Below, piece by piece: positions 2,569 through 52,119 of a stretch of 64,000 nt of DNA. The position numbers were made by a program, and so were the translations under genes. The stretch is from Clostridia bacterium (GTDB taxonomy: Bacteria; Bacillota; Clostridia; Christensenellales; UBA1242). Within the stretch, counting starts at the first letter, position 1, and each line of letters opens with the position of its first letter. The notes under the pieces are model-generated. The model was not told the origin of the DNA. It worked only from the letters and a program-made list of their open reading frames with translations, and ran no database searches. Where the stretch lies: assembly GCA_017501645.1 (NCBI GenBank), contig JAFVWN010000062.1, positions 2,980 through 66,979 of the forward strand. Direction: 5' to 3'.

Positions 2569-3537
2569 TTAATAATAAAACTCTTCTTTTTGAGGTCTTG
2601 CAAATAAATCCATAAGGGCATTTTTAGTATCTTTTTTATGAGAGATAATTTCGCTTACTGTTTTTGTAATAGGTAAGTCGACATTATATTTTTCTGCAAG
2701 TTTCAAAAGTGCATTTGAAGTTTGAACACCTTCTGCAAGTTTGTCAAAATATTCACCTTTAACAAATAGCTCCCCAAACTTTCTGTTATGAGAGTGTAAG
2801 GAGAATAGAGTTGCTTCATAGTCTCCAAGATGACATAGTCCATAAGCAGAAAGTTCATTTCCGCCAGCAGAGTGAATGAGTCTTGCAATTTCACGAGTGC
2901 CTCTTGCCATTAGAGCGCCTTTGAGAGAAGATAGGTCAGCTCCGTCAAGCATACCTGCAGCAATTCCCATAACATTTTTAGCAGCAGCTCCAATTTCTGT
3001 ACCAATCATATCGTTACCTTGATAATATCTTATTAGGTCACTCTTTAAATCGTCAATCAGTGTTTTAGAAAGTTCTTTGTTATAAGAGTCGATAATCATT
3101 AGACTAGGAACGCCTCTTGTAAATTCTTGAATATGACCAGGTCCAACCCAAGTTGCAATATTATTTTTGTCAATTCCTGCATCTTCAATAACTTGAGAAA
3201 GTCTGTTTCCAGTGGTTTCCTCAATTCCTTTCATACAAATGATATAGTTCTTTTTGTTAAAACCGTCTATGTTTTTTACGCTTGTCATTAGAGAGCGTAG
3301 GTTTTGAGAACTAATTGAAATTATAATGTTTTGATTTTTGTTAAGAGCGTAGTTTAGGTCTGTAGTAAGTTCAATGCTTTCAGGGAATGTGACATAATTG
3401 TTTTTCCTAGTTGCGAAAAAGTTTGTGACATATGGGTCTGTGTCGAGTCCCCAGGTTGTAACTTTGTGTCCATTTCTGTCAAGATACCAAGCAATGAAAC
3501 TACCCCAACGCCCGCATCCAAGTATTGTATAATTCAT
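2569..3537 (-). CDS. gpsA: NAD(P)H-dependent glycerol-3-phosphate dehydrogenase
   Basis: N-terminal Rossmann motif ILGCGRWGS, internal GpsA-like blocks (TNRLSQVIE, KNVMGIAAGMLDG, TRGxREIARL). Confidence 0.8.
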   Translation of the reverse strand: MNYTILGCGRWGSFIAWYLDRNGHKVTTWGLDTDPYVTNFFATRKNNYVTFPESIELTTDLNYALNKNQNIIISISSQNLRSLMTSVKNIDGFNKKNYIICMKGIEETTGNRLSQVIEDAGIDKNNIATWVGPGHIQEFTRGVPSLMIIDSYNKELSKTLIDDLKSDLIRYYQGNDMIGTEIGAAAKNVMGIAAGMLDGADLSSLKGALMARGTREIARLIHSAGGNELSAYGLCHLGDYEATLFSLHSHNRKFGELFVKGEYFDKLAEGVQTSNALLKLAEKYNVDLPITKTVSEIISHKKDTKNALMDLFARPQKEEFYY

Positions 3538-3615
3538 AATTTACCTCCATTTGTTCTATAGTAACACATTTTTTGATTATTGCAAACGGTTTTTAGTGCT
3601 TTTTTTAAGTTTGGT

Positions 3616-5987: not shown

Positions 5988-6393
5988 ACGATTAAAAAGG
6001 ACAGAGTTGATACTCTGTTCTTTTTTTGTTTAATAAAAACCGTTTTTAAAAAAACAAAAGCAGGAGATAGGTATTATTTTATAGAATAAGAAGTGTGTGG
6101 GAGATAGGATAATATATTTAATACTGGGGAATAATAAGGCAGTTGTTATTCTTTTGTATCAATTTGTTTAAGGTTGTATTTTGATATAAGGATTGTTGCT
6201 TAGAGATTGCAAATTCTTTTTTATTAAAATTTTTTAAAGGGTTGATTTTTTTTGAAATTTGTGTATAATATAATTTGTTGTCTAGCAGGGGAGATACCTG
6301 AAGGAGTATAAAAGGGTAAAAATATAAGGGTTTGATTATACAAAAAACCTTTTTCAATAAAATAAAATTTTTTGATAATTTTTTATTTTTTTG

Positions 6394-6422
6394 TTGACAT
6401 TACTTCTTATATGGTGTATATT
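6394..6422 (+). promoter_or_regulatory. Candidate promoter TTGACA-17-TATATT driving the six-tRNA cluster
   Basis: Perfect -35, 17-nt spacer, 29 nt upstream of the first tRNA. Confidence 0.55.
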
Positions 6423-35910: not shown

Positions 35911-36225
35911 ATGGAAATAAAATATTCTTTCCAGGGAGAAGAGTTGAATGTTGTTATGAAAGGAGAACTTGATGAATGTACCGCACCATATGTAAGGCTG
36001 TCTCTTGATACAATATTGAAAGACCTTAACGGAGGTGACACAAAACTTGTGCTTGATTTAGGGGGCGTTTCTTTTATGGATAGCACAGGGATAGGTGTTC
36101 TTTTAGGCAGATATAATAAGTTTAGAAAAAGTAATGTGAATATTTATATAAAAAATCCTCAAGGGCATGTAAACAGGATTCTTGAGATGACAGGAATTTA
36201 TGAGATAATGCCAAAAATATCATAG
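35911..36225 (+). CDS. spoIIAA: Anti-sigma-F factor antagonist SpoIIAA (STAS domain)
   Basis: LDLGGVSFMDSTGIGVLLGRY with the phosphorylatable Ser; operon context. Confidence 0.9.
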   Translation: MEIKYSFQGEELNVVMKGELDECTAPYVRLSLDTILKDLNGGDTKLVLDLGGVSFMDSTGIGVLLGRYNKFRKSNVNIYIKNPQGHVNRILEMTGIYEIMPKIS

Positions 36226-36236
36226 GAGTTAAAATA

Positions 36237-36683
36237 ATGGATAGTTTTGAAAATTTTGAAAATAAGTTTTATTTGAAGTTAGATGCAAAATTAATAAACG
36301 AGGGTTTTGCAAGAAGTATGGTTGCGACTTTTTGTGTTCAACTTAATCCGTCAATCAGTGAGATTAACGATATAAAGACTGCTGTTAGTGAGGCTGTAAC
36401 TAATTCAATAGTGCACGGCTATTCTAAAGAAAAAAGAGGAGATATTGAAATTTATGTAGGAATAAAAAATAATGTTGTTTATATTAAGGTTGTTGACTTG
36501 GGTACTGGAATAGAAGATATTGATAAGGCAAGACAACCGTTTTTTACGACAAAATCTCAGGAAGAAAGGTCTGGTATGGGTTTTACATTGATGGAGTCTT
36601 TTATGGATACGCTAAATGTATATAACAATGCTGATGGTGGCGTAACTGTAGAGATGACAAAGGAAATAAAATCAAATCTATAG
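36237..36683 (+). CDS. spoIIAB: Anti-sigma-F factor SpoIIAB (HATPase-type Ser kinase)
   Basis: N-box EAVTNSIVHGY, G-boxes DLGTGI and GMGF. Confidence 0.9.
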   Translation: MDSFENFENKFYLKLDAKLINEGFARSMVATFCVQLNPSISEINDIKTAVSEAVTNSIVHGYSKEKRGDIEIYVGIKNNVVYIKVVDLGTGIEDIDKARQPFFTTKSQEERSGMGFTLMESFMDTLNVYNNADGGVTVEMTKEIKSNL

Positions 36684-36693
36684 GGTATAAGCA

Positions 36694-37437
36694 ATGATTG
36701 AGGAATTTAAACCGCTTGGTATAAATGAAACAAATGAGCTTATTGAAAAAGCAAAGAATGGAGATAATGAAGCAAAAGAAAAATTAATTCAGGGAAATTT
36801 TCCTCTTATAAAATCAATTATAAAAAATTATCAAAATAAAGGGGTTGATTATGATGACTTATATCAACTTGGTTGTGTTGGGTTCTTGAAAGCAATTAAT
36901 AATTTTGATGAGAAGTTTGAGGTTAAATTTTCCACATATGCCGTGCCAATGATTGCAGGAGAGATAAAAAGATTTTTGAGAGATGATGGAAGTATCAAAG
37001 TGAGTAGGGCAATAAAGGCTCTTTGGATAAAAATAAGAAGTTTGCTTGACCAATATAAAACAAAGGGAGAATCTGCTCCAACAATTGATGAGATGGCAAA
37101 AATATTTGAGGTTGATACAGCAGATATTGTTTATGCAATGGATTCTGCTCAATCAATAATAAGTCTTAACGCTCAACTTGATGAAAGTTCAAATAATTCT
37201 CAGTCTGTCATAGATAAAGTTGCTAGTGATGATAAAGCAGAACAACTCATTGATAAAATATTGTTAAAAGATGCAATATCAAAACTTCCAGAAAGGGAAA
37301 AGAAAATTATTTTGCTTAGATATTTTAGAGGAAAAACACAAAGTGAAGTTGCAGAGCTTATGGGGGTTTCCCAGGTACAAATTTCAAGAATTGAAACAAA
37401 AATAATATCAAAATTAAAATATAAGTTAGCAGAATAA
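36694..37437 (+). CDS. sigF: Sporulation sigma factor SigF
   Basis: Sigma-70 regions 2-4 (DLYQLGCVGFLKAINNFD, YAVPMIAGEIKRFLRDD, TQSEVAELMGVSQVQISR). Position directly after spoIIAB. Confidence 0.85.
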   Translation: MIEEFKPLGINETNELIEKAKNGDNEAKEKLIQGNFPLIKSIIKNYQNKGVDYDDLYQLGCVGFLKAINNFDEKFEVKFSTYAVPMIAGEIKRFLRDDGSIKVSRAIKALWIKIRSLLDQYKTKGESAPTIDEMAKIFEVDTADIVYAMDSAQSIISLNAQLDESSNNSQSVIDKVASDDKAEQLIDKILLKDAISKLPEREKKIILLRYFRGKTQSEVAELMGVSQVQISRIETKIISKLKYKLAE

Positions 37438-37519
37438 ATGATATATAATATATGTATAAATAAAAAACAGCACACAAAAAAGTGCAAAACCAAATAAAAA
37501 TTGTGAAAATTTACAAATA

Positions 37520-37557
37520 AAAACACTCAAATATTATTTTTTGAGTGTTTTTATTTT
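37520..37557. terminator. Bidirectional terminator
   Basis: AAAACACTCAA/TTGAGTGTTTT stem with flanking A/T runs. Confidence 0.8.
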
Positions 37558-37567
37558 GATGATTATT

Positions 37568-39382
37568 TTAATTAATATATGGTGTAGGAATAGCTTTTTC
37601 GTTTCTATTTATAACATAACCATTGCTGACGATAGGTTGATTATTAATAGTTTTACTTTTGTTGTTTTTGTTTTTATCAATAAACATAGAAGCAAAACAA
37701 GTTAAGCAATCTTTATTGTTTGTGTCTCCTTCGAGTATTGAAGTGTCTTCATTTATTATATCTGTTTCAAGTGTCCTATCTTGGTTATTGGTTGTGTTCT
37801 GCAAAGTGTTTGATGGAGTAATACTACTAATATTTGAGATTTCTGGTTTGTTTTCAACTTGAGGTACTGGACAGTTTTCACACTCATCAGTTACAAGATT
37901 TTGATTAACTGTAATATTTGTGTTGTTTAAATTAGGGTAGTCTTTATTTTTAATCGGTAATGATTTGTTCTCTGTAGTTGGACAGTCGATACATTCAGTT
38001 TGTAATGCTTTGTCTTTTATTATTTGACCGTTTATACAACAGTCAGGGCAATCTTCACAATTTGTACAGTTTTTGCAATCTATATTTTGAGTTTTATTAG
38101 TTTTGTTTGTGGTTAAGTTTTGAGATGTGTTGTCTATTTTGTTTTTTAACAATAAAGAACCGTTTTGTGTGTTTGTTAAATCATTTATTTTGTTATTATT
38201 TGTCAACTTGTTTATTTTGTTTTCATCTGTTTGTTTAAACTGGGTTGTTGAGATATCTTCTGTGTTTAAAATTAAATCTTCTTGATTTCTGTTTTCTAAA
38301 TTGTAAATATTATCGCTTAAAGCGTCACTATTTACATTTGTATTGTTAATATTTGTGTTGTTGGTTAAATTGTTGTAACTGTTTTCGTGAATTGATTTAT
38401 TAAAGTTTGGTGAATTTTCTGTTAAGCTTAAACTTAAAATATCGCAAATAGATTCTATTGCAAGAATAGAAGAATCAATCTTTGCAAGTCTTGTTTGGAT
38501 TGTTTCGTTTGTTCTTATTATATACGCATTAATAAGAGGTGAAGTGTTGTTTGTACTTGCTAATGATTTTGCGTGATTGATTTGATTTCTAATCATACCT
38601 CTGTTTGAGTTTAAATATGAAGTATTGTCTTTGATAATATTAATATAAGCGTTGATGGCTTGTTTGCTTTGGTTTGTTAAGTTGACATAGCCTTTATATA
38701 AGTCATTGATATATAATAAAACATTAGCTCTTTGATTTATAAGATTGGTTATAGTTTCTTGAATATCAGTTTCTTTATTCTCAATGCTTTCAGTTGAATA
38801 TGCAACCATCATTATATTGTTGTTCTCTGTTGTGGTATTCAAATTGTAATAACCGTTACTTTTTGTAGGTAATGATATGTTTTTTGTTGGGTAATTATTA
38901 TATCTTTCTAAAGAATTTGAAACTGTATCCTGTGAATCAAAAAGGTTGTCATTGTTTGCGTGATGATGAGGGAGTCTCCTTCGATAGTGTCTTGGTTTTA
39001 AGTTTGTGTTTTTGTAATGTGTTGTTGGTGTGCGTAATGGTTGGTGGTTGTTTCGTAATGGTTCATTGTTGTTGGTATCTGTGTTGGCCTCGCTGTTTTC
39101 AATATTTGTATCTAGAGTTGTTTGGTTACTCTCGTTTATGTTTAAAAGTCTGGCATTTTCGTTGGTGCTTATAACTGATTGTTGAGATGTTCCATAGTTG
39201 TTTAATTCTTCTAAAATGCTTTGGTCTGCCCAATCCAAACTGCTGACAGAATATACTAAATTTGCAACAGTGTCATCTAGGTTTCTTGCAAGTGTTTTAT
39301 CTTCGTTTTTACATCCCGTAAATAAAAAACTAAAGCAAATTAATGGAATTAATAATAAGTATTTGAGTGTTTTTTTAATCAT
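37568..39382 (-). CDS. N/T-rich low-complexity lipoprotein with Cys-rich CxxC clusters
   Basis: ATG 39382 after GGAGG. Lipobox FLFTGC. Motif block CKNCTNCEDCPDCC..CIDCP..CENCP. Confidence 0.65.
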   Translation of the reverse strand: MIKKTLKYLLLIPLICFSFLFTGCKNEDKTLARNLDDTVANLVYSVSSLDWADQSILEELNNYGTSQQSVISTNENARLLNINESNQTTLDTNIENSEANTDTNNNEPLRNNHQPLRTPTTHYKNTNLKPRHYRRRLPHHHANNDNLFDSQDTVSNSLERYNNYPTKNISLPTKSNGYYNLNTTTENNNIMMVAYSTESIENKETDIQETITNLINQRANVLLYINDLYKGYVNLTNQSKQAINAYINIIKDNTSYLNSNRGMIRNQINHAKSLASTNNTSPLINAYIIRTNETIQTRLAKIDSSILAIESICDILSLSLTENSPNFNKSIHENSYNNLTNNTNINNTNVNSDALSDNIYNLENRNQEDLILNTEDISTTQFKQTDENKINKLTNNNKINDLTNTQNGSLLLKNKIDNTSQNLTTNKTNKTQNIDCKNCTNCEDCPDCCINGQIIKDKALQTECIDCPTTENKSLPIKNKDYPNLNNTNITVNQNLVTDECENCPVPQVENKPEISNISSITPSNTLQNTTNNQDRTLETDIINEDTSILEGDTNNKDCLTCFASMFIDKNKNNKSKTINNQPIVSNGYVINRNEKAIPTPYIN

Positions 39383-39496
39383 AAAATTTCCTCCGTAATT
39401 GTGTTTAGTATGTGAATAAAAGTAAAAAATATTTGTCAAAAGTATAAAATATAGTTATTTTGACAATATTTACATAAAGAAAATGCGATTTTTATT

Positions 39497-39964
39497 ATGG
39501 GGGAGAATATGAATAACGAAGAAAGAAATGAAAAATATTTGGAATATGTAGAACAAAAATCACCAAAGGCGGGTTGGTTTAATTCTTTATTTCATGCATT
39601 TGTAATGGGGGCGACAATTTGTTGTTTAGGGCAAATGTTTGGAGATATCATTCGCTCATTTTATCCTGTTTTAGATTTATTAACTGTCGGTGCTTGGAGT
39701 AGTATTATTATTATTGTTCTAACAATATTTTTAACAGCTTTTGGATGTTTTGATAGACTTGCTAAATATGGAGGTGCAGGAACATTTATTCCAATTTCTG
39801 GGTTTGCAAATTCGATTGCTTCTTGTGCTATTGAGTTTAAAAAAGAAGGGTTGGTTTTTGGTGTAGGCTCAAAGATGTTTTATGTTGCGGGGCCGGTGTT
39901 GGTTAATGGTGTTGCTTACTCGTTGATAGTTGGTGTTGTTTATTTTATTATAGGATTGTTTTAG
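39497..39964 (+). CDS. spoVAC: Stage V sporulation protein AC
   Basis: SpoVAC-like 4-TM protein (GGAGTFIPISGFANSI). ATG 39509 is an alternative start. Confidence 0.85.
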   Translation: MGENMNNEERNEKYLEYVEQKSPKAGWFNSLFHAFVMGATICCLGQMFGDIIRSFYPVLDLLTVGAWSSIIIIVLTIFLTAFGCFDRLAKYGGAGTFIPISGFANSIASCAIEFKKEGLVFGVGSKMFYVAGPVLVNGVAYSLIVGVVYFIIGLF

Positions 39965-39973
39965 GAGGGAGAA

Positions 39974-40984
39974 ATGAAAAAGCTTGGGAGTCAAACATAT
40001 TCTTTTGAAAGTGATATATCAATAATATCTGGAGTTAGTTTGGTTGGTGGCAAAGAAGGGGCTGGTCCTTTGAAGAAGTATTTTGATTTTGTTGAAGAAG
40101 ATGACAAGATGGGGCAGAAGACTTTTGAAAAAGGTGAGCGTCTTATGTTTTTAAAAACTATATCTTCAGCAATTAAAAAATCAAAGGTAGAAAAAGATAA
40201 TATTGATTTGTACCTTGGTGGAGATTTAATGAATCAATTGGTTAGCTCTAATTATACGGCGAGCGAATTAAATATTCCGTTTGTTGGTCTTTATAATGCG
40301 TGTGCAACAATGGCTGAAAGTTTGATTGTGGGAAGTATATTTCTTGACTCTAAGGGGATGAAAAATATTGTCTGTGCAACTGGTAGTCATTTTAGCACAG
40401 CTGAAAGACAATATCGTTACCCGTTGGAATTTGGAAATCAACGCCAGTCTTATGCGCAATGGACAGTGACTGGTGTTGGGGCAACTGTTGTATCAACAGA
40501 AAAAACATCTAATATAAAAATCAAAATGGCGACCATTGGTAAAGTGACAGATTATGGCGTTAGTGATATTGCAAATATGGGGGCAGCAATGGCGCCTGCG
40601 GCAATGGAAACTTTAGTTGCTTTTTTTACGGATACTAACACAACTCAAAAAGATTATGACTTGATTGCGACTGGAGATTTGGGGAAGCTTGGCAGTGATA
40701 TTTTTAAAGATTTAATGATGGAGAAGGGGTATGATATAGAAACCAATTATGTGGATTGTGGGCATATGATATTTAATATTGACCAAGATACATTACAAGG
40801 TGGTAGTGGTGCTGGCTGTAGTGCGAGTGTTTTTAATTCGTATATTCTTAGTAAACTGAGAAGTGGAGAACTAAAAAAAGTTTTGTTAATATCGACAGGT
40901 GCTCTTATGAGTACGACAACAAACCAGCAAGGAGATTCCATTCCTTGTATTGCTCATTTGGTTTTAGTAGAGGGAGAGAATTAA
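39974..40984 (+). CDS. spoVAD: Stage V sporulation protein AD (thiolase-like fold)
   Basis: Length, YNACATMAES, and position between spoVAC and spoVAE. Confidence 0.85.
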   Translation: MKKLGSQTYSFESDISIISGVSLVGGKEGAGPLKKYFDFVEEDDKMGQKTFEKGERLMFLKTISSAIKKSKVEKDNIDLYLGGDLMNQLVSSNYTASELNIPFVGLYNACATMAESLIVGSIFLDSKGMKNIVCATGSHFSTAERQYRYPLEFGNQRQSYAQWTVTGVGATVVSTEKTSNIKIKMATIGKVTDYGVSDIANMGAAMAPAAMETLVAFFTDTNTTQKDYDLIATGDLGKLGSDIFKDLMMEKGYDIETNYVDCGHMIFNIDQDTLQGGSGAGCSASVFNSYILSKLRSGELKKVLLISTGALMSTTTNQQGDSIPCIAHLVLVEGEN

Positions 40985-40985
40985 T

Positions 40986-41360
40986 ATGGGTGAAGCATTA
41001 TTAATGTATTTAAAAGTCATATTGGTTGGAGGAAGCATTTGTACAATTGCTGAGCTGATTGTGATAAGAACAAAAATTACACCCGCTAGAATTCTTGTAA
41101 TCTTTTTGATGGTGGGGGCAATTCTTGGTGGGTTTGGTTTGTATAATTATGTAGTTGATTGGGCAGGAGCTGGAGCAACACTTCCTATTGTTGGTTTTGG
41201 AAATTCATTGGCGAATGGAGCTATTACTGCTGTTAAAACGGATGGCTTTTTTGGTGCTTTGTCTGGTGGGCTTATTGCAACAAGTGCGGGTATTGCAATA
41301 TCGATAGGTCTTAGTTATTTAGTTTCATTTTTTGTTAGTTCAAAGACTAAAAAGGATTAA
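40986..41360 (+). CDS. spoVAEB: Stage V sporulation protein AE (SpoVAEB type)
   Basis: Paralogous to SpoVAC (LPIVGFGNSLANGA), ~120 aa. Confidence 0.8.
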   Translation: MGEALLMYLKVILVGGSICTIAELIVIRTKITPARILVIFLMVGAILGGFGLYNYVVDWAGAGATLPIVGFGNSLANGAITAVKTDGFFGALSGGLIATSAGIAISIGLSYLVSFFVSSKTKKD

Positions 41361-41402
41361 AAATTTATAATAAAAACAAATAATTATTCATATTATTTTT
41401 AT

Positions 41403-42083
41403 ATGAGTAATATTTACAAAAAATATTTTTCGGCAAAAAAATCTGTTAAAAGAAGCAGATTTGTGTTGTTTTTTGCAATTTTAGTGTTTGTTTTTGCAGT
41501 TTTTATTTTATACTTCACTTTTTTGGTGACTCCATTAATAGTTGATACAAGTAGAGCGCAAATAAAAGTTTTTGCGACTAAATCAATGAACTTTGCAATC
41601 ACTGAAGCTATCAATCAAAATATAAGTTATGACGATTTGGTGAATATAATAACTGATGGTTACGGCAAGATAAATATGATTCAAGCCAACACTGTAAAAA
41701 TAAATAATCTTAGTACAATGATTGAAAGGATAACACTTTCTCATCTTTTAGAAGTTGGTAAGAAACCAATACAGATACCTCTTGGTGCGTTTACTGGAAT
41801 AACTTTAATTTCTGGTTATGGTCCACCTGTTGAAATCGAGATTTTTCCGTATGGTGAAGTTGGGTGTAGATTTTTATCTCAGTTTGTAAGTGCAGGGATA
41901 AACCAAACGCAACATAAGATTTATGTTCAGGTTGACACTTTAGTGAATGTGGTTTTGCCATTTAGGACTGTTAGGGTAAAGATGTCAAATGAGGTTTTGG
42001 TTTGTGAAAGTGTTATAATTGGAGAAATACCTGAAACCTATTTAAAGTCAAATGCTCTTAATGAAATGACAGGTCTTGTATAG
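41403..42083 (+). CDS. yunB: Sporulation protein YunB
   Basis: N-terminal TM, then the YunB-like region (IPLGAFTGITLISGYGPPVEIEIFPYG..). Confidence 0.7.
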   Translation: MSNIYKKYFSAKKSVKRSRFVLFFAILVFVFAVFILYFTFLVTPLIVDTSRAQIKVFATKSMNFAITEAINQNISYDDLVNIITDGYGKINMIQANTVKINNLSTMIERITLSHLLEVGKKPIQIPLGAFTGITLISGYGPPVEIEIFPYGEVGCRFLSQFVSAGINQTQHKIYVQVDTLVNVVLPFRTVRVKMSNEVLVCESVIIGEIPETYLKSNALNEMTGLV

Positions 42084-42181
42084 TAAAAATATAAAAAATA
42101 GAGGGTAAAATAGTAATAAAGTTTTAAAACTTTATTGCTTTTTCTTTTGTTTGATATTACAATATATGCAGAGGAAATGAT

Positions 42182-43327
42182 ATGGAACAAAAGATATATT
42201 ATTTAGATAATGCTGCAACAACTAAAATGTTTGATGATGTTTTAAGTGAGGGTGTTAAGTATTATAAAGATGAGTTTTATAATCCAAGTAGTGTTTATTA
42301 TAAATCGGTTGAAGTAAAAAGGTGTTTGAGTGAAGCAAAGAAAACTTTACTCAACTGCCTTGGTGCTGATGATGGTGAGATAATTTTTACAGGTTCTGCG
42401 ACTGAAGCAAACAATATGGTTGTGTTTTCGCAAAAGAATATGAAAGGCAAAAAGTTTTTGTTTGGTGCTGGTGAGCATCCTTCAGTTTTAGAGTGTGCAA
42501 AAGAACTTTTAAAGAGGGGATATGATGTTGAGTTTATTCCTCTTTCAAAAGAAGGCTCTGTTGATATGGAAAGCTACAAGCAAATGGTGTCTTGTGGAAA
42601 TGTTGCTTTTGTAAGCGTTCAACATACTAGTAATGAAACTGGTGCTGTGAATCCAATAGCGAAACTTGTTAAGCTTGCAAGAAAGTTTAATAAGGATGTT
42701 TTATTTCATAGTGATGGTGTCCAGGCGTTTTCAAAATTTGGTTATAGTGTTTTAGATTTGGATGTTGACTACTATACAATTTCTGCTCATAAAATTTATG
42801 GTGCAAAAGGTGTTGGTGCTTTGTATATAAAAAAGGGAGTAAAAATTAATCCATTAATCTTCGGTGGTGGTCAAGAGTCTGGATTAAGGTCTGGAACGGA
42901 AAATGTTTTTGGCATAATGACTTTTAAAATGTGTGCCGAAAAAGTGATAAAAGACATAGAGAAAAATTATAATAAAGTTCAAAATATGAGGAAGGAACTA
43001 CTTGATGAACTTACAAAAAATGGTATTGATTATGTAATTCACGGAGAGGGTGTTCCTCATACAATGAATATATGTTTATCAAAAAAAGTGAGAGGTGAAA
43101 CTTTGGTTCACGCGCTTGAAAAACAAAACATTTTTGTGTCAACAGGTTCAGCTTGTTCTTCAACAAAAAATTACAATACTACTCTTGAAGCAATGGGTGT
43201 TCCTGCAGAAGAGATACTTTCAAGTATAAGAATATCATTTAGTCCTTATATGGATTTTGATGCTAAATTTATTGCAAAAACAATTTGTGAACAGTTGAAA
43301 AAATTAGAGGTGAAAAGTTATGAATAA
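42182..43327 (+). CDS. Cysteine desulfurase (NifS/IscS class V aminotransferase)
   Basis: PLP lysine in SAHKIYGAKG, active-site loop GSACSS. Coupled to thiI. Confidence 0.85.
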   Translation: MEQKIYYLDNAATTKMFDDVLSEGVKYYKDEFYNPSSVYYKSVEVKRCLSEAKKTLLNCLGADDGEIIFTGSATEANNMVVFSQKNMKGKKFLFGAGEHPSVLECAKELLKRGYDVEFIPLSKEGSVDMESYKQMVSCGNVAFVSVQHTSNETGAVNPIAKLVKLARKFNKDVLFHSDGVQAFSKFGYSVLDLDVDYYTISAHKIYGAKGVGALYIKKGVKINPLIFGGGQESGLRSGTENVFGIMTFKMCAEKVIKDIEKNYNKVQNMRKELLDELTKNGIDYVIHGEGVPHTMNICLSKKVRGETLVHALEKQNIFVSTGSACSSTKNYNTTLEAMGVPAEEILSSIRISFSPYMDFDAKFIAKTICEQLKKLEVKSYE

Positions 43328-44489
43328 AGTTGTTTTGGTTCGATATGGAGAAATTTTTTTAAAAGGAAAAAACCGCAAATTCTTTGAAGATTGCTTAAAA
43401 AACAATATCCAAAATGCACTTTTAGGGCTAAATTGTGCTGTTTTTAAAATTTCTGGAAGGTTTATGGTAGAGGGGTATAATCCTAAAGATGAGCAAAGAA
43501 TTATTAATATAATTATCAAACAAGCGGGTGTATTTTCTGTATCTCCAGCAACTTGTATTGATACTGATAAAGAGCAAATTATTGGGCTTGTGAAAGAACT
43601 TACAGAAGACGAAGTTGGAACTTTTAAAGTTGTGACTAATAGAGCGGATAAGACATTTCAGCCAAACTCAATGGAGTTTAGTAGGCAACTCGGTGGGGTG
43701 ATTTTGAAGAATAATAACGACTTAAAAGTTGATGTTGTTAATCCAGAATTTGTTGTAAATATTGATATAAGAGAAAACAAAAAAACTTATATTTTTACAA
43801 AAACTTTTATGGGTGTTGGTGGTATGCCTGTTGGCTCTGCGGGTAAAGGTTTATTACTTTTGTCTGGAGGAATTGATAGTCCAGTAGCCGGCTTTATGAT
43901 GGCAAAAAGAGGAACAAAACTTCAAGCTCTTCACTTCCATAGTTTTCCTTATACAAGTGAGCTTGCGAGATTAAAAGTTGAAGAACTTGCAGGTAAGATT
44001 GCTGATTATAATGCGGGTGATTTAGAAATTTATATGTGTCCAATGACCCATTATCAAGAAGAGATTAATAAAAATTGCAGAAACATTTATAATATAACTT
44101 TGCTTAGAAGAGCAATGTTTAGAATTGCTGAAAGACTATGCAAAGAAAAAGGTTTGCAAATGATAATTACTGGGGAAAACTTAGGGCAAGTTGCAAGCCA
44201 GACAATTGAAAGTATGACAGTCGTTGGAAATGTTGTTGAAGATATTCAAATTATGAGACCACTTGTTGCTTTTGATAAGCAAGAGATTATTGAGGTGTCA
44301 AAAAAGATAGATACTTACGAAATTTCTATAAGACCATATGAAGATTGTTGTACTGTTTTTGTTCCAGATACCCCTGTAACTAAGCCAAGATTAGAAAATG
44401 TTATAGAAGAAGAAAAGAAACTTAATTTTGAAGAACTAATTGATGAAGCTTATTCAAAAATAGAGGTTGTAACAATTAAAAATTCATAG
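43320..44489 (+). CDS. thiI: tRNA 4-thiouridine(8) synthase ThiI
   Basis: N-terminal RYGEIFLKGKNR, THUMP region, PP-loop SGGIDSPVA. Confidence 0.9.
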   Translation: MNKVVLVRYGEIFLKGKNRKFFEDCLKNNIQNALLGLNCAVFKISGRFMVEGYNPKDEQRIINIIIKQAGVFSVSPATCIDTDKEQIIGLVKELTEDEVGTFKVVTNRADKTFQPNSMEFSRQLGGVILKNNNDLKVDVVNPEFVVNIDIRENKKTYIFTKTFMGVGGMPVGSAGKGLLLLSGGIDSPVAGFMMAKRGTKLQALHFHSFPYTSELARLKVEELAGKIADYNAGDLEIYMCPMTHYQEEINKNCRNIYNITLLRRAMFRIAERLCKEKGLQMIITGENLGQVASQTIESMTVVGNVVEDIQIMRPLVAFDKQEIIEVSKKIDTYEISIRPYEDCCTVFVPDTPVTKPRLENVIEEEKKLNFEELIDEAYSKIEVVTIKNS

Positions 44490-44528: not shown

Positions 44529-44572
44529 ATTATTAATAAAATGAGTTGATAAAAATAAAAATTAAAAATTTC

Positions 44573-45012
44573 AAAAAGGGGTTAAAATCGCTTGACATTT
44601 TCGTGGGGGGGGGGGGTAAAAATATATTATGAAAGTATAAAGAAAAATTCTCTATCAATACTAATAAGAAAAGTGATGCGATTTCTTATTAGAAAAGTAA
44701 AGAGTTTGCTTATACAAAAATATACGGAGGAATGTATGAAGAAACAAAAAGTAGAAAATTCTACAAAGAAGAAAGGCTTTTTCAAAAAAAGTTTGGCTCT
44801 AGCCCTTGTTGCAGGAACGCTTGCTGTCAGCTCAGTTGGACTTGTTGGTTGTAGTGATGGCAAAGACGGCAAAAATGGTTCAACTTGGTTTAGTGGTCAA
44901 GACGCTCCTTTTGAGTCTACAGGAAAAATTGGCGACTATTATTTTGATACTGATGACTTCAATATTTACAAAAAGGGAGAAACTGGTTGGGTAATCATTT
45001 CTAACATTAAAG
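44573..45012 (+). repeat. Copy 1 of a ~440-bp duplicated module (promoter cassette, 5'UTR, lipoprotein signal peptide and first protein module)
   Basis: Near-identical to 49246-49410 in the non-coding part and roughly 80% similar onward to 49689. Confidence 0.9.
44592..44622 (+). promoter_or_regulatory. Candidate phase-variable promoter: TTGACA - TTTTCGT - G12 - TAAAAA
   Basis: Perfect -35 at 44592-44597, uninterrupted G run 44605-44616, A/T-rich -10-like box from 44617. Confidence 0.55.
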
Positions 45013-48000
45013 GTGAACAAGGAAATCCTGCAGTTCCGCCAACAGTTGAAATTGATGCGAATGGATACTGGGTTATTAATGGTATTCCAACTGAACATCT
45101 TGCACATGGTAAAGATGGTGCAAAATGGTTGTTTGGCAACAATGTCCCAACAACAGAAGGTGTTGTGGGTGACTTCTATTTAAGAGGAGAAACTTGTGAC
45201 ATTTATGAAAAAATAGAAACTGGTTGGGTAAAAATTGGAAACATCAAAGGCTCTGGAACAGTACAAGAAACTGATTCTAAGGCTATTGGTGACCACACTA
45301 TGATTAGTGATGGTTTAACAGAAATGGCAGCAAACGCCGTTGAGTTTGTTGTTGACGACAATACAGGTATTGCTTATGCTGTTTATCTTGCTAGTGAAAC
45401 ATCTCTTGGAGAAAGTAGTGCGCTTGTAAAGATGGCAAAGTTTAACATTTTACAACCAACAAATGTAGAATGGGTAACAGTATTTAATAAAAGCACTGAT
45501 TTTGGCGGAAGTTCATTATCAGAGTGTAATATTATCAACCTCAACAGTAGTACAGTAAGAGTTTATGCAATTAACAAAAATGGCTGGGGATATTATTATA
45601 AGGATGTAAATAAAAAGACTTTAGCACTTGGTGCAAAAACTGAAGTGAAGTTTAAGTCAAGCGAAGCATCTGATCCAGTAGCTCTTAATATTGCAAACTT
45701 AAATACATATATTTCATCAATTGGTGGAAAGTCTTTTGGTGAACTTCAAATGACAACAAAAATCATAGAAGTTGATGGATACTATTATGCAAATCTTGTT
45801 GGTGGAAATGGAACTCAAAATGTATTGTTTGTAAAGTCTAGTGATGGTGCAACTTGGACTCTTCAATCTGTAATTAGACATAGCGCAAACTATGAAGCTA
45901 TGCTAGAGTACCACGATGGTAAGTTCTGGGTAATGTGTAGAAATGGTGTAACAACACCTACATCAAGCACTCAACAAAACTTAATGTATTCAACAGATGG
46001 TATTACTTGGACTCAAAGTAATCTTGCGTTGACTACATCTGATACAAGACCATACTTATTTAGATATCAAGGTGAACTATATCTTGCATATTCTTCACCA
46101 ATGCCTACAAACTATTCAACAGTAAGAAACTGGAGATGTAATATCCATATTGGTAAAATCGTTTCTTCAGGTGGAGTTGAAACTTTTGATGAGGTTATCT
46201 ATAAAGAAAGTAAGTTTGGTATTGTTTACTATGCATTACATGACTGGTATGGCAATATGGTAATGCTATACTCTTCTGGCGAACTCAATCCAACAGAAGG
46301 TTTGATGGGTGGCTGGTCTCAAGGAAAGGACTGCTTGAACTATACAGTTTTAAAAACTCAAGCTCCTGAACTTTCATTCAAGACATTATCATCAATTAGC
46401 GTAACTAATGAACCAAATGTGACAGAGTATGCTGTTGGCGATACTTTTGACCCAACAGGATTAACTGTAAGAGCACAATTTAGCGATAACACATATTCAA
46501 CAGTTACAGGATATACTTTGTCAACACCAGATATGACAACAGCTGGTACAAAAACTATCACTGTTACATATACAGTAAATGGTGTTGCAAAAACTGCGAC
46601 ATTTGATATTGAAGTTTCTCAAATTGAAAAGGTTTTACAATCAATCGAGGTTGTTTCAAATCCAACAAAATCAAACTATTTATTAAATGAAACATTTGAC
46701 CCAAGTGGTTTAGTTGTTAAGGCTAATTATAATATTGGTTCACCAGCAACTATTTCAAACTATTCACTTTCAACACCTGATATGAGTACAGTTGGTACAA
46801 AAACAATTACTGTTTCTTATATCGAAGAGGGCGTAACAAAAACAACTACATTTACTATTGAAGTAAGTGAAGAACTAAGAGAATATAATGAATTTGACTC
46901 TCTTCAATCTTCTGGTGTGCAATATATTAACACTGGGATTAAAACAACAGCAAACACTAAAATTGTTGTAAGAATGAACAAGCCTGACAACAGTGGTGTG
47001 GATGGCGGAAAATGGTTGTTTAGTTCTGCAGATAATAGTAGTGCTCGAAATTTTGGTTTTTGTATTAAACCAGATGGAGCATATGTACTAGACTTTGGTG
47101 GTACAAGATATCAAACAGGCACTATTAACTGGCAAGATGGAGTTAACACAATTACTATTGGTAATGGTGTGTTTACAATAAATGATACAGCTCTTGTTAC
47201 AGGTTTAAGTGTTACAGGAACACCTTCAAATTCTAATAACACACTATATTTCTATCAATCACCAACAAGCACTAATAACACATACTTAGCTGGTATTGTT
47301 TACGAGATTTCAATTTATGAAGGTGATAACCTTGTAATGCATTTAATCCCAGCTCAAAGAACCAGTGATAACAAAATTGGTTTCTATGATACAGTAGGTG
47401 AAGCGTTTATTTTCTCTGCAACAGGAACTGACTTTGCTCAAGGACCTGCAGAAGTTGTTAAGGTGTTGACTGAGATTTCAGTAGTAACCAATCCAACTAC
47501 AACTCAGTATGTAAAGGGAGATGCTTTTGACCCTACTGGTTTAGTAGTCAAAGCAACTTACGAAGATGGTTCATATAAAAATGTAACAAACTATTCTTTA
47601 TCAACACCAGATATGACAACAGCTGGTACAAAAACAATCACTGTAACATATCAAGAAAAAGGTGTAACACAAACAACATCTTTTACAATTACTGTAATTG
47701 ATGTTCAAAAGGTTTTGGATTCTATTGAAATAAAAACCAACCCTACAAAAACAACCTATGCAATAAATGACACATTCTCTTCAAACGGTTTGGTTGTTGT
47801 TGCAAATTACAATGTTGGAAGTCCTGCAATGGTTACTAATTATTCACTTTCAACACCAGATATGACAACAATTGGAACAAAAACAGTTACTGTTTCTTAC
47901 ACAGAAGAGGGTGTGACCAAAACTGCAACTTTTGAAATTGTTGTTACTGAATTAAATTATATTCAGCTTGAATCAGTAACCGCTAATGGTAATCAATATA

Positions 48001-49118
48001 TTGATACTGGTTATACAACAAAAGCGAACACCAAAATTGTTATTGAAATTGATAAGCCAAATGATGAAGATGTAACTGGTGGTAAGTGGTTGTTCAATTC
48101 AACACCATCATCAGGAAACAGGAACTTTGGTTTTAATGTTAAACCATCAGGTGCTTATGTACTTGATTTTGGTAACACAAGATATCAAACAGGAACAATC
48201 AATTGGCAAAATGGTAAAAACACAATTACTATTGGTAATGGTGTATTTACTATTAATGGTGGTGCTTTAGTTACAGGTCTTAATGTAACAGCAACTCCAA
48301 CCACTTCAACAGGAACACTATGGTTCTTAACTGCTGCAAGTTCAGATTCTACAGCATATTTTAAGACAAATATTTATAAGATAGCTGTTTATGAGGGTGA
48401 TACTCTTGTAATGAATTTAGTTCCTGCTCAAAGCAAAGAGAATGGAAGAGTTGGTTTCTATGATACAGTAGCCGATAGTTTTGTTTGTTCATCAACAGCG
48501 AGCGACTTTACATCTAATTCTTCAGTAGACATTGAAGAAACTTATACAACTCTTCAATCTGTAACTACAGATGGCACGGGTTATATCAACACTGGTTACA
48601 CAACAACAGCAAACACTAAAGTTGTTGTAACAATGGAAAAACCTGATAATAGTGGTGTAACTGGTGGAAAATGGTTGTTTTCATCAGATGCGAGAAATTC
48701 ATCAACAAAGAATTTTGGTTTCTGTATTAAAGAAAATGGTGCTTATGTTTTAGATATAGGTGGTACTAGATATGATACAGGCACTATTAATTGGCAAGAT
48801 GGAGAAAATACTATTACAATTGGTAATGGCGAGTTTTCTATCAATGATACTGATTTAGTTACTGGCTTAAATATTACTACAAGTTCAGGAAATTCAGCTG
48901 TTCCTCTTCATATATTCACAACTCTTAACACAACATCAACAACATACTTTGCTGGTACTGTTTATGAGATTTCAATATATGAGGGAGATACTCTTGCAAT
49001 GCATTTAGTTCCTAGCAAGAGAGGTAGTGATGGAAAAGTTGGTTTCTATGATACAATAAGTGAAGCATTCTTTGTTTCATCAACTGGTACAGGTTTAACT
49101 GGCGGAGCTGAAGTCTAA
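44736..49118 (+). CDS. 1460-aa surface lipoprotein: N-terminal GDYYxD..NIKG modules, Asp-box/sialidase-like beta-propeller region, 4 Big_3-type Ig-like domains, and 3 copies of an unclassified ~190-aa module
   Basis: ATG 44736 after GGAGG. Lipobox LVGCS. SSDGATW and STDGITW Asp-boxes. Ig repeats (YAVGDTFDPTGLTV..AGTKTITVTY). The ORF-track start at 44592 is actually the -35 box. Confidence 0.8.
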   Translation: MKKQKVENSTKKKGFFKKSLALALVAGTLAVSSVGLVGCSDGKDGKNGSTWFSGQDAPFESTGKIGDYYFDTDDFNIYKKGETGWVIISNIKGEQGNPAVPPTVEIDANGYWVINGIPTEHLAHGKDGAKWLFGNNVPTTEGVVGDFYLRGETCDIYEKIETGWVKIGNIKGSGTVQETDSKAIGDHTMISDGLTEMAANAVEFVVDDNTGIAYAVYLASETSLGESSALVKMAKFNILQPTNVEWVTVFNKSTDFGGSSLSECNIINLNSSTVRVYAINKNGWGYYYKDVNKKTLALGAKTEVKFKSSEASDPVALNIANLNTYISSIGGKSFGELQMTTKIIEVDGYYYANLVGGNGTQNVLFVKSSDGATWTLQSVIRHSANYEAMLEYHDGKFWVMCRNGVTTPTSSTQQNLMYSTDGITWTQSNLALTTSDTRPYLFRYQGELYLAYSSPMPTNYSTVRNWRCNIHIGKIVSSGGVETFDEVIYKESKFGIVYYALHDWYGNMVMLYSSGELNPTEGLMGGWSQGKDCLNYTVLKTQAPELSFKTLSSISVTNEPNVTEYAVGDTFDPTGLTVRAQFSDNTYSTVTGYTLSTPDMTTAGTKTITVTYTVNGVAKTATFDIEVSQIEKVLQSIEVVSNPTKSNYLLNETFDPSGLVVKANYNIGSPATISNYSLSTPDMSTVGTKTITVSYIEEGVTKTTTFTIEVSEELREYNEFDSLQSSGVQYINTGIKTTANTKIVVRMNKPDNSGVDGGKWLFSSADNSSARNFGFCIKPDGAYVLDFGGTRYQTGTINWQDGVNTITIGNGVFTINDTALVTGLSVTGTPSNSNNTLYFYQSPTSTNNTYLAGIVYEISIYEGDNLVMHLIPAQRTSDNKIGFYDTVGEAFIFSATGTDFAQGPAEVVKVLTEISVVTNPTTTQYVKGDAFDPTGLVVKATYEDGSYKNVTNYSLSTPDMTTAGTKTITVTYQEKGVTQTTSFTITVIDVQKVLDSIEIKTNPTKTTYAINDTFSSNGLVVVANYNVGSPAMVTNYSLSTPDMTTIGTKTVTVSYTEEGVTKTATFEIVVTELNYIQLESVTANGNQYIDTGYTTKANTKIVIEIDKPNDEDVTGGKWLFNSTPSSGNRNFGFNVKPSGAYVLDFGNTRYQTGTINWQNGKNTITIGNGVFTINGGALVTGLNVTATPTTSTGTLWFLTAASSDSTAYFKTNIYKIAVYEGDTLVMNLVPAQSKENGRVGFYDTVADSFVCSSTASDFTSNSSVDIEETYTTLQSVTTDGTGYINTGYTTTANTKVVVTMEKPDNSGVTGGKWLFSSDARNSSTKNFGFCIKENGAYVLDIGGTRYDTGTINWQDGENTITIGNGEFSINDTDLVTGLNITTSSGNSAVPLHIFTTLNTTSTTYFAGTVYEISIYEGDTLAMHLVPSKRGSDGKVGFYDTISEAFFVSSTGTGLTGGAEV

Positions 49119-49145: not shown

Positions 49146-49184
49146 AGAGTAAAAGAGCGATTATTCTCTCTTTACTCTTTTTTT
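49146..49184 (+). terminator. Rho-independent terminator
   Basis: AGAGTAAAAGAG / CTCTCTTTACTCT imperfect stem followed by T7. Confidence 0.65.
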
Positions 49185-49245
49185 GTTTGTTTTTTAATGT
49201 TAAATATAAGAAAAGATTGTTTGTTAATAAAATTAAAAAAATTAA

Positions 49246-49689
49246 AAAAAGGGGTTAAAATCGCTTGACATTTTCGTGGGGGGGGGGGGGTAAAAATATA
49301 TTATGAAAGTATAAAGAAAAATTCTCTATCAATACTAATAAGAAAAGTGATGCGATTTCTTATTAGAAAAGTAAAAAGAGTTTGCTTATACAAAATATAC
49401 GGAGGAAGTTATGAAAAAACAAAAAGTAGAAAAATCTACGAAGAAGAAAGGCTTTTTCAAAAGAGGCTTGGCACTAGCGTTGGTTGCAGGAACAATGGCT
49501 GTTGGTTCTATTGGACTTGTTGGTTGTAGTGCTGGTGAAAAAGGAGCAGATGGTTCAACTTGGTTTAGTGGAAAAGACACTCCTTTTGAGTCTACAGGAA
49601 AAATTGGTGATTTTTATTTTGATACTGATGACTATAACATTTACCAAAAAGGTGAAACTGGTTGGGTGATTATTTCTAACATCAAAGGA
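49246..49689 (+). repeat. Copy 2 of the duplicated promoter/5'UTR/signal-peptide module
   Basis: See 44573-45012. Confidence 0.9.
49265..49296 (+). promoter_or_regulatory. Candidate phase-variable promoter: TTGACA - TTTTCGT - G13 - TAAAAA
   Basis: Perfect -35 at 49265-49270, G run 49278-49290. Confidence 0.55.
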
Positions 49690-52119
49690 CCTCAGGGTGA
49701 TGTTGGTCAAACTGGACCTCAAGGCCCTCAAGGTGAACCTGGTACACCGGGTGAACCGGGAACTCCTGGTACCCCAGCAGAAGACCCGCTTATTGAAATT
49801 AATGAAGATGGGTATTGGGTTATTAATGGTACTGAGACAGATGTTCTTGCAAAGGGCCAAGATGGCGAAGATGGTGAAATGCCAGTTATTGAAATCAATA
49901 CTGAGGGATACTGGGTTATTAATGGAGACCCTACAACTATAAAGGCTACAGGTAGCGAAGGACCAGAAGGTCCAAAAGGAGATGCTGGTGCATCATTCTT
50001 AACAGGTAAAGGTGCTCCTGATAGTACTTTAGGAAATGACAATGATGTTTATTTGGATGAAAACTCTTATGAACTTTATAAAAAGACTTCTGGAGTTTGG
50101 GCATCTATTGGTAACATAAAGGGTGATAAGGGTGATAGCGGTGATGTTGTTATTACTAATGGCCCTCTTTATGGCAAGACAATCCTTGCAATTGGAGATA
50201 GTTATGTAAAAGGACACACTTCTCCAGAGGCTGACACTTGGATTTCTCAACTTGCAACAAGAAATAGTATGACTAAGTATGTTTATGCTCAAAACGGCAT
50301 AAGTGTTTCTCACGCAACAACTGCTTCTTCAAGCGGACTTGTTGATATGATAGATATGATTACTACAAATGTTGCAAAAACAGATTATATTGTGTTTTTA
50401 GCAGGTCATAATGATGCAAACCCACAATTAAATGGTGGTACAGCAGTCCCAATTGGAACAAATGATGACAATACTGTTACAACATACAAAGGCTCTTTGA
50501 ATATTATTATTGAGGCTTTAACAGAAAAATATCCAACAGCAAAAATATTGTTCTTAACACCATTCAATAGAAGAGCTATCGAAGAGCCATATGTTACAGC
50601 TATGCAAGAAGTTTGTGCGAAGTGGGCAATCCCTTGCTTTGACAACTATCATAATAGTGGTATAAGTTGGCAAAATCCAGCACAAAAAGAAGCTTACGAA
50701 AGTGATTCTCTTCACTTTAATAAAGCTGGTCACGAGAGAATTTCTTTGATGTATCAATCAATTTTAGAAAACAACTTAGTTATTGGTGGAAACATCATTG
50801 ACGGTGTTGGTGATGGAGATTGTTCTTGCGATAATACTACTAGTGGAGGAAACAACTCTGGTAGTGGAGATAATACTGGTGGTAACACAGGATCAGAGGG
50901 TGGTGGTAACAGCGGAAGTGAAGTTACTCCTCCAACTGGTGGAGGCGAAGATGTTGGTTTAACATTTAGCTTTGTTACTCACAGCACAGGAGAGAATACA
51001 AGAGCGGTAGCTACTTATACATTTACTGCTGGTCAAACAATAGATTTTGCTGATGTTTCAAATGGTGCAATTTATAAGTATGCGGTAGGTCCAGGAAATA
51101 ATGGTGTTGCAACTTCTTGGATTGGTGGTGGATATCAAACTGCTGGTACACCCTGCACGATTCCAACATCCGGACTTTATACAATTATGATTGCAAAAGT
51201 TGATAGTGCAAACCCTGATATGACAGATGTTGAACTTGAAGCATTCTCAACATTTTTTGTGATTACTGAAGTTGGTGGTGGTTCTTCTGGTTCAGGTGGC
51301 GATGGTTCAGGTACTGGTGGTACAGAAACAGAAGACCCAGAAACTCCAGAAGTTCCCGATTCTATATTTGACGATACAGCAACAGAGATTACTTTCGATT
51401 CAAGAACTTTAACAGTTGTTGAAGATTTAGCAGAAATGGAGTTTGTTGCTGGTAAAACTCTAGGTGGACCACAAAATGTTGTGTATAGTGATTCTGTAGG
51501 TAGAGCGGTTTCTCAAACTCATGTTTTAAAAGTTAACAAAAATGTAACATATTATTTTACAAACGAAGCAATGGAAGCTGGTGTTACATATGTTGCATAT
51601 GCATTTAGCGGAGCTCCATTGTCTCAAGCGACATATTATGCAGATGAGTCTGTTTCTGTATACTCTCAATCAAATTTAGTTTTAACAAGCGCAACAAAAT
51701 ATTTGTTGATTATTTTTAAAAATGGTGGTGGTACAACTGATTTTTCAAGTGATGATTTATTAAAGTTACCATTATATTTCACAACAGAAGAACCTGATTT
51801 TGAGCCTCTTTGGTTAACAGACTTCAATAACTCAGCACAAGCAAATAGGGCAATAGCAACAATTTCTCTTGATGTGGGATATACTGTGGATTTTATAAAT
51901 GATTCAATTTGGGAAACCTATAAATATGCCATTGGACCAGGAACTAAGGGTGCTGCAACTACTTGGATTGGTGGTGGTTATCAAAACCAAGGAACACCTT
52001 GTACAATTCCTTCAAAAAATACTTATACAATTATGATTGCAAAACAAGACAATTCTGATTTTACAGAACAAGACTTAGCGTTTCTTAAAGGTTATATGTC
52101 TATTCAACCTGCGGAATAG
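49411..52119 (+). CDS. 902-aa surface lipoprotein: shared N-module, short collagen-like GXY tract, SGNH/GDSL hydrolase domain, G/S linkers, and two copies of an unclassified C-terminal domain
   Basis: Lipobox LVGCS. GPQGDVGQTGPQGPQGEPGTPGEPGTPG. SGNH blocks AIGDSYVKG and DSLHFNKAGH. Twin domains containing YKYA(V/I)GPG..W IGGGYQ..GTPCTIP..YTIMIAK. Confidence 0.8.
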   Translation: MKKQKVEKSTKKKGFFKRGLALALVAGTMAVGSIGLVGCSAGEKGADGSTWFSGKDTPFESTGKIGDFYFDTDDYNIYQKGETGWVIISNIKGPQGDVGQTGPQGPQGEPGTPGEPGTPGTPAEDPLIEINEDGYWVINGTETDVLAKGQDGEDGEMPVIEINTEGYWVINGDPTTIKATGSEGPEGPKGDAGASFLTGKGAPDSTLGNDNDVYLDENSYELYKKTSGVWASIGNIKGDKGDSGDVVITNGPLYGKTILAIGDSYVKGHTSPEADTWISQLATRNSMTKYVYAQNGISVSHATTASSSGLVDMIDMITTNVAKTDYIVFLAGHNDANPQLNGGTAVPIGTNDDNTVTTYKGSLNIIIEALTEKYPTAKILFLTPFNRRAIEEPYVTAMQEVCAKWAIPCFDNYHNSGISWQNPAQKEAYESDSLHFNKAGHERISLMYQSILENNLVIGGNIIDGVGDGDCSCDNTTSGGNNSGSGDNTGGNTGSEGGGNSGSEVTPPTGGGEDVGLTFSFVTHSTGENTRAVATYTFTAGQTIDFADVSNGAIYKYAVGPGNNGVATSWIGGGYQTAGTPCTIPTSGLYTIMIAKVDSANPDMTDVELEAFSTFFVITEVGGGSSGSGGDGSGTGGTETEDPETPEVPDSIFDDTATEITFDSRTLTVVEDLAEMEFVAGKTLGGPQNVVYSDSVGRAVSQTHVLKVNKNVTYYFTNEAMEAGVTYVAYAFSGAPLSQATYYADESVSVYSQSNLVLTSATKYLLIIFKNGGGTTDFSSDDLLKLPLYFTTEEPDFEPLWLTDFNNSAQANRAIATISLDVGYTVDFINDSIWETYKYAIGPGTKGAATTWIGGGYQNQGTPCTIPSKNTYTIMIAKQDNSDFTEQDLAFLKGYMSIQPAE

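Follow-up and report, generated by a model that had tools for sequence, protein, structure and literature searches.

A repeated poly-G cassette in front of surface lipoprotein genes of a gut Clostridia bacterium, probably a promoter-spacer repeat switch

Two adjacent lipoprotein genes of an uncultured Clostridia bacterium are preceded by the same non-coding cassette, in which a long poly-G tract directly follows a perfect -35 box and the heptamer TTTTCGT, and a further copy of the cassette precedes a third lipoprotein gene of the same genome. The cassette is real and non-random, and it is most likely a repeat switch located in the promoter spacer, through which a family of three or more surface lipoproteins would be controlled. 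We put the probability that slipped-strand phase variation at the promoter spacer, operating at each gene independently, is the best explanation at about 0.7. A switch of this type is known from pathogens and is rarely reported in gut Clostridia; the host here would be an unusual one.

The two adjacent copies lie on the plus strand of the window, by which we mean the whole 64-kb stretch of DNA analyzed. In copy 2, upstream of the gene for P2, a conserved A-rich block (49246..49264) is followed by the -35 box TTGACA (49265..49270) and by TTTTCGT (49271-77), then by a G13 tract (49278..49290), which gives a spacer of 20 bp, and a putative -10 box, TAAAAA (49291..49296). Farther downstream are a hairpin in the 5' untranslated region (UTR) (49335..49366), with the arms CTAATAAGAAA/TTTCTTATTAG at 49335-45/49356-66, the ribosome-binding site GGAGG (49401..49405), and the start codon ATG of P2 (49411). 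The positions assigned to the TTGACA, the G13 tract, the hairpin, the GGAGG, and the ATG in a first-pass annotation of this DNA were all exact to the base. Copy 1, upstream of the gene for P1, begins with the A-rich block AAAAAGGGGTTAAAATCGC (44573..44591), at which conservation among the three loci sets in and which thus marks the left edge of the cassette; it is a possible UP element. It continues with the -35 box TTGACA (44592..44597), a perfect consensus kept in all copies, a G12 tract (44605..44616) forming a spacer of 19 bp, a putative -10 box TAAAAA (44617..44622) directly 3' of the tract, a 5' UTR hairpin (44661..44692) with an 11-bp stem and a 10-nt loop that is identical to that of copy 2, the ribosome-binding site GGAGG (44726..44730), and the start codon ATG of P1 (44736).

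Between the two genes, a terminator-like hairpin with a T run lies 3' of P1 on the same strand (49147..49186; by eye, GAGTAAAAGAG..CTCTCTTTACTC and then TTTTTTT). It was not called by a simple scan because its stem is poor in G-C pairs; if it terminates transcription, the second gene, encoding P2, needs a promoter of its own.

The products of both genes have lipoprotein signal peptides and are therefore surface exposed. P1 (1460 aa; 44736..49118, plus strand) consists of a signal peptide with the lipobox LVGC, an N-terminal module shared with P2, a sialidase-like beta-propeller, four Big_3 domains, and three C-terminal modules of ~195 aa. P2 (902 aa; 49411..52119, plus strand) begins with the same signal peptide and N-terminal module as P1, which are followed by a collagen-like stretch and an SGNH/GDSL esterase domain; its C-terminal domains are repeated. 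Phage proteins, namely a tail lysin and tail fibres (6v8i), were among its weaker matches. The two proteins are ~80% identical over the first ~96 residues and then diverge. The earlier description of the pair as having a common N terminus and different C-terminal parts was thus correct, with Big_3 Ig-like domains and a sialidase-like fold in P1 and a collagen-like stretch and an SGNH/GDSL domain in P2.

The sialidase-like label is supported for P1 at the level of the predicted fold. The AlphaFold model of residues ~173-548 (~375 aa; window 45252-46379) had a pLDDT of 93 and a pTM of 0.91, and its best matches in the PDB were GH33 sialidases, with a TM score of ~0.6 and E values down to ~1e-9. 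The six-bladed beta-propeller and the Asp-box motifs SSDGATW and STDGITW are present, and an alignment of the domain contains columns of invariant Arg, Tyr, Glu, and Asp. Pfam gave no significant match for the sialidase-like domain of the window protein.

The N-terminal module (GxxWxxG...GDxYxDTDDxxxYxKxxxGWxxxxNIKG) is found at 44856-45023 and 49531-49698 of the window, and again at ~45117-45250 and 49987-50123. The first-pass annotation named it as a first module common to the two proteins. An HMMER search at an E value of 0.001 or below returned 2745 cluster representatives, with up to 23 modules per protein and with giant-virus collagen-repeat proteins among the carriers, so it is a very widespread repeat and not specific to this family. 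An exhaustive HMMER listing of paralogs by their N terminus was consequently swamped by proteins carrying many copies of the module, and a word-indexed search with the 96-aa N terminus gave no matches.

A homology search with P2 identified the third member, P0017, a protein of 860 aa with collagen-like and GDSL domains and a signal peptide identical to that of P1. P0017 and P1 come from the same NCBI metagenome-assembled genome (MAG) (MBR2909005.1, locus tag IKC11_01500, and MBR2909855.1, accessions in one close range). The gene for P0017 is at a separate locus, 3' of ruvABC-queA-tgt-yajC, and is likewise preceded by the cassette; the genome therefore contains at least three copies, and the cassette that had been described as duplicated is at least triplicated. 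Across the three loci of this MAG, the signal peptides are near-identical, with the lipobox LVGC, and the C-terminal parts are unrelated. At 90% clustering, both P1 and P0017 were singletons.

Directly upstream of the lipoprotein locus, at 35911-44489 of the window, are a spoIIAA-spoIIAB-sigF-like operon, spoVAC/D/E, and yunB; the upstream genes also include one for a cysteine desulfurase-like aminotransferase and thiI. The sporulation genes identify the host as an endospore-forming member of the Firmicutes. DNA identical to the window is present in ENA assemblies labelled XIEF21-1, which we infer to belong to a ruminant gastrointestinal MAG project, judging from the RGIG isolate name and PMC8199421.

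In a window of 32% G+C, the G12 and G13 tracts are the only runs of six or more G or C residues in 64 kb, and in 100 shuffles of the window a G run of 10 or more was expected 0.00 times; both tracts are therefore extreme outliers. When the window was combined with contig L009, which carries locus 3 (~84 kb of non-redundant DNA), all G or C runs of eight or more fell in cassettes. The conservation of the cassette is equally confined. Copies 1 and 2 can be aligned from ~20 nt before the TTGACA through the signal peptide. Their non-coding part, from ~20 nt 5' of the TTGACA to the ATG, is 96.4% identical; identity is 83% in the first 288 coding nucleotides and falls to ~54-60% in the sequence flanking the cassette. 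As the first-pass annotation had it, two adjacent genes bear the same cassette with tracts one G apart. Since the non-coding part is better conserved than the start of the coding sequence, selection or gene conversion acting on the cassette is indicated. Identity of the cassette across the three loci was 89-96%; at all three the conserved block begins ~20 nt upstream of the TTGACA, and farther upstream identity is 54-68%. A conserved block that begins at this distance from the -35 box fits a promoter starting there. Exact-pattern scans for the cassette gave no match in GTDB species representatives or JGI metagenomes, a protein-guided scan of genome contigs returned distant relatives only (33-47% identity), and a blastn comparison of the cassette with phage records gave no match and hence no support for a phage origin.

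We then compared tract lengths in the available assemblies, which provided seven readings. Locus 1 had G12 in the window and also in the independent contig L001. Locus 2 had G13 in the window and in L006 and G11 in L007, where the tract is 2 nt from the contig end. Locus 3 had G13 in L009 and G11 in L010, the tract being internal to the contig in both, and the downstream 860-aa protein was identical in the two. Over 4642 nt, L007, which comes from another sample, matches the window at 100% identity except for the tract (G11 versus G13), and in sample SAMN15830035 locus 2 had G11 and locus 3 had G13. As the tract was the sole difference in 4642 nt and its lengths were unlike between loci, it changes faster than its surroundings and does so independently at each locus, as judged from seven readings. 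The variability in length that independent switching presupposes was therefore found, both between assemblies of near-identical DNA (G11, G12, and G13) and between loci within one sample. Further readings were sought through the glycosyltransferase encoded downstream, but the contigs retrieved in this way end short of the cassette.

The breaks of contigs close to the tract were considered as a sign of heterogeneity and rejected as such: the Logan unitigs terminate at 44602 of the window, having run exactly 30 nt into sequence that the cassettes have in common, as expected of a repeat assembled with k=31. In short-read assemblies, breaks fall at the repeated cassette or within it (window 44569-44800; ends of L001-L005, L007, and L019), five contigs end inside or just before it, and L005 contains a chimeric join directly after CGTGGG. 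Because the repeated cassette breaks short-read assemblies, such loci are easily lost from MAGs or split in them.

In the mechanism that we propose, each cassette would be a sigma-A-type promoter whose spacer consists of TTTTCGT plus the poly-G tract and thus measures 7+n bp, i.e., 17 bp for G10, 18 bp for G11, 19 bp for G12, and 20 bp for G13. The TTGACA ends 7 nt before the tract, and the hexamer TA(A/T)AAA, a weak -10 candidate, follows directly after it; at locus 3 of L009 it reads TATAAA. Slipped-strand mispairing during replication would add or remove G residues, each such change would alter how far apart and at what rotational angle TTGACA and TA(A/T)AAA stand as -35 and -10 boxes, and transcription of the downstream lipoprotein gene would be switched or graded by this altered geometry. 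For copy 2, the predicted transcription start is ~49303, with a 5' UTR of ~110 nt. Canonical promoters of the window have TTGACA followed after 17-18 bp by TATATT, TATTAT, or TATACT (for example, at 6394, in front of the tRNA cluster, and also at 3615, 8767, and 53636). Since these ordinary promoters use spacers of 17-18 bp, the on state would be expected at about G10-G11 and a weak or off state at G12-G13. Both genes of the window, with G12 and G13, would then be low or off. The suggestion that the two genes form on/off combinations consequently stands in part: the tract does occupy the putative -35/-10 spacer and its length does vary per locus, but the spacers of 19 and 20 bp in the window are both predicted to be weak or off, and the two lengths are thus not an on/off pair. 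With at least three cassettes switching separately, the cell could present different combinations of one sialidase-like/Ig protein and two collagen-like/SGNH esterases.

Several findings count against a spacer switch. The observed lengths give spacers of 18-20 bp, the optimal 17 bp being absent from the seven readings, and TAAAAA matches the -10 consensus at 4/6 positions and does not have the conserved final T. A simple promoter scan did not call the cassette promoter at the present tract lengths. The other -10 sequences TATATT (49297-302) and TATTAT (49299-304) were set aside as candidates, being 26-28 bp from the TTGACA and having no -35 box of their own.

That all the observed lengths, 11-13, exceed the predicted optimum would also be expected if the tract were mutable and had little or no regulatory effect, a hitchhiker in a cassette that duplication or gene conversion had spread. 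The genes would then be either constitutive or controlled by a conventional regulator at the palindrome in the UTR. The conserved hairpin/palindrome is a possible regulatory site of this kind. We nevertheless consider this account unlikely, since a G run of 12-13 nt at 32% G+C, where there is no other run of six or more, is expected to erode without selection, and yet the run has been kept at three loci and in several strains, in the same spacer position.

The tract might instead be transcribed from a promoter farther upstream, as part of the 5' UTR, and act at the RNA level through transcriptional slippage, a G-rich RNA structure, or protein binding. A candidate for such a promoter is TTAAAA-17-TAAAAT at 49233-49261, a 9/12 promoter-like site found by the scan, the -10 box of which (TAAAAT, 49256-61) is inside the conserved block. 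Its -35 box, however, falls in non-conserved sequence, in which copy 1 reads AATTAA, and the perfect TTGACA is kept in all copies. A change in UTR length, moreover, has no obvious on/off consequence. Concerning RNA structure in general, the copy 2 hairpin folds as an 11-bp stem, the whole leader having a z score of -1.96, and in the locus 3 hairpin two A residues of the 5' arm are replaced by G, with pairing preserved as G-U, a weak hint of a stem formed at the RNA level. No Rfam match was obtained in 49150-49480 at an E value of 1 or below, so that no known cis-regulatory RNA family was recognized there, which speaks against the upstream-promoter account as well. We regard that account as rather improbable.

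It is very improbable that errors of sequencing or assembly produced the poly-G runs or the differences in their length. Illumina reads do miscall long G runs, and one of the G11 readings is at a contig end (L007). The tracts are, however, internal, with unique flanks, in four independent assemblies (L001, L006, L009, and L010), and the G11 and G13 readings of locus 3 (L010 and L009) both come from internal tracts; as the same tracts recur in the independent assemblies L001, L006, and L007, they are not an artefact of one assembly. Almost no weight can be given to a coding tract that would frameshift a translation starting upstream, e.g., at TTG 44592, open in frame to P1: in copy 1 no stop interrupts the ATG frame over the 50 preceding codons, which include the tract, and a 1508-aa open reading frame starts at that TTG, but this is not common to the other copies, the model is refuted for loci 2 and 3 by in-frame stops that lie 3' of the tract, just 12 and 19 codons ahead of the ATG, a strong GGAGG is located 5 nt before the ATG in copies 1 and 2, and the lipoprotein signal peptide begins at that ATG.

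Promoter switches based on repeat tracts are a textbook feature of pathogens of mucosal surfaces, among them Neisseria, Haemophilus, and the mycoplasmas. In porA of Neisseria meningitidis, expression is highest at G11 (17 bp), lower at G10, and lowest at G9, and in opc of Neisseria, expression is high at C12-13. [quoted passage not shown] The Neisseria genes differ in encoding outer-membrane proteins of a Gram-negative organism and in being single genes that share no family cassette, and the spacers found here are 18-20 bp.

The closest parallel in design is the Vlp system of Mycoplasma (Mesomycoplasma) hyorhinis, in which every vlp lipoprotein gene has a homopolymeric A tract in its promoter and insertions or deletions in it switch the gene on and off (PMC10502178). 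In both families each lipoprotein gene has a conserved 5' region, comprising the promoter, leader, and signal peptide, followed by a divergent, repetitive mature part, and in both, indels in a promoter homopolymer would switch each gene independently, as established for Vlp and as proposed here from sequence only. The tract is poly-A in Vlp and poly-G here, at 32% G+C; the host there is a mollicute pathogen and here a walled, spore-forming commensal of the Clostridia; and the variable proteins are short repeat antigens there and large, modular, enzyme-bearing proteins (sialidase-like, SGNH) here. Sequence searches of Pfam, NCBIfam, and the PDB gave no match to Vlp. The cassette resembles Vlp in design and not by descent.

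Other systems share single features with the cassette. Repeat slippage in the -35/-10 spacer of hifA/hifB of Haemophilus influenzae controls a surface structure (cited in PMC9187656); there the repeat is the dinucleotide TA, the promoters form a divergent pair, and the products are fimbriae. In Bifidobacterium breve, replication slippage at G tracts generates on/off surface diversity of pilus genes, and promoter-spacer G tracts are mentioned as well (PMC9187656). This is likewise a gut commensal that uses G tracts to diversify a surface structure, but the characterized tracts are intragenic and act by frameshift, and the host is a high-G+C actinobacterium. The switches documented in gut anaerobes are mostly invertible promoters, and invertons of Clostridioides difficile and gut Bacteroidales produce stochastic on/off expression of surface proteins (PMC11868660, PMC11892184). 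Invertons operate by site-specific inversion between inverted repeats, and an inverton was rejected for the window: no inverted-repeat pair brackets either promoter, and the UTR hairpin is local. Our literature search, the coverage of which was incomplete, turned up no description of a poly-G switch in a promoter spacer of Clostridia, which is no proof that none exists.

A cassette present in at least three copies in the MAG of an uncultured ruminant-gut member of the Clostridia suggests that commensal Firmicutes also make use of repeat-tract promoter switches. What this switch would vary are large surface enzymes, a sialidase-like protein and SGNH esterases, which probably act on host or dietary glycans, and the variation is perhaps a response to host antibody, phage, or substrate.

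A distant relative, represented by contigs L008 and L023 (protein P0001, 46% identical to P2), has four paralogous lipoprotein genes with a duplicated upstream cassette that is devoid of poly-G. Each cassette there contains a palindromic hairpin resembling a terminator, which recurs in inverted form 106-112 nt farther downstream, immediately ahead of the ribosome-binding site. The repeat pairs are at 3142-3188 and 3291-3333 and at 6348-6390 and 6497-6539 of L008 and at ~2800-2840 and ~2945-2985 and at ~5993-6035 and ~6143-6180 of L023. A sigma-70-like promoter between the repeats of L008 and L023 was not found. The centers of the paired hairpins co-vary as reverse complements in all four pairs (TCCGT/ACGGA, TCGGT/ACCGA, TGTGT/ACATA, and TCTGA/TCAGA), and each of the four was observed in a single orientation. 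Such pairs may represent an inverton, a switch by loop-loop pairing in the RNA, or paired operators. It is conceivable, although on balance doubtful, that the lipoprotein family serves a little-known lineage of gut Clostridia as a general "variable surface enzyme" system and that one type of switch has given way to another in the course of its evolution, the switch being a poly-G spacer in the window and co-varying inverted hairpin repeats around the upstream region of the homologous genes, perhaps as an inverton or RNA switch, in L008 and L023. If so, commensal spore formers run mycoplasma-style combinatorial switching of antigens and enzymes, and a single gene family illustrates the replacement of one phase-variation mechanism by another.

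Two further observations concern P1. Proteins of ~370 aa that consist of the sialidase-like domain by itself, at 53-69% identity, are encoded in other metagenome and MAG assemblies, and the few of these that carry a name are Ruminococcaceae/Oscillospiraceae and Clostridia MAGs; in P1 the domain appears to have been fused into a lipoprotein scaffold. The long direct repeats of the P1 gene (window 46492-49113) correspond to two Big_3 pairs and three modules of ~585 nt, are 63-76% identical, and could recombine to give proteins of different size, as happens in other variable surface proteins.
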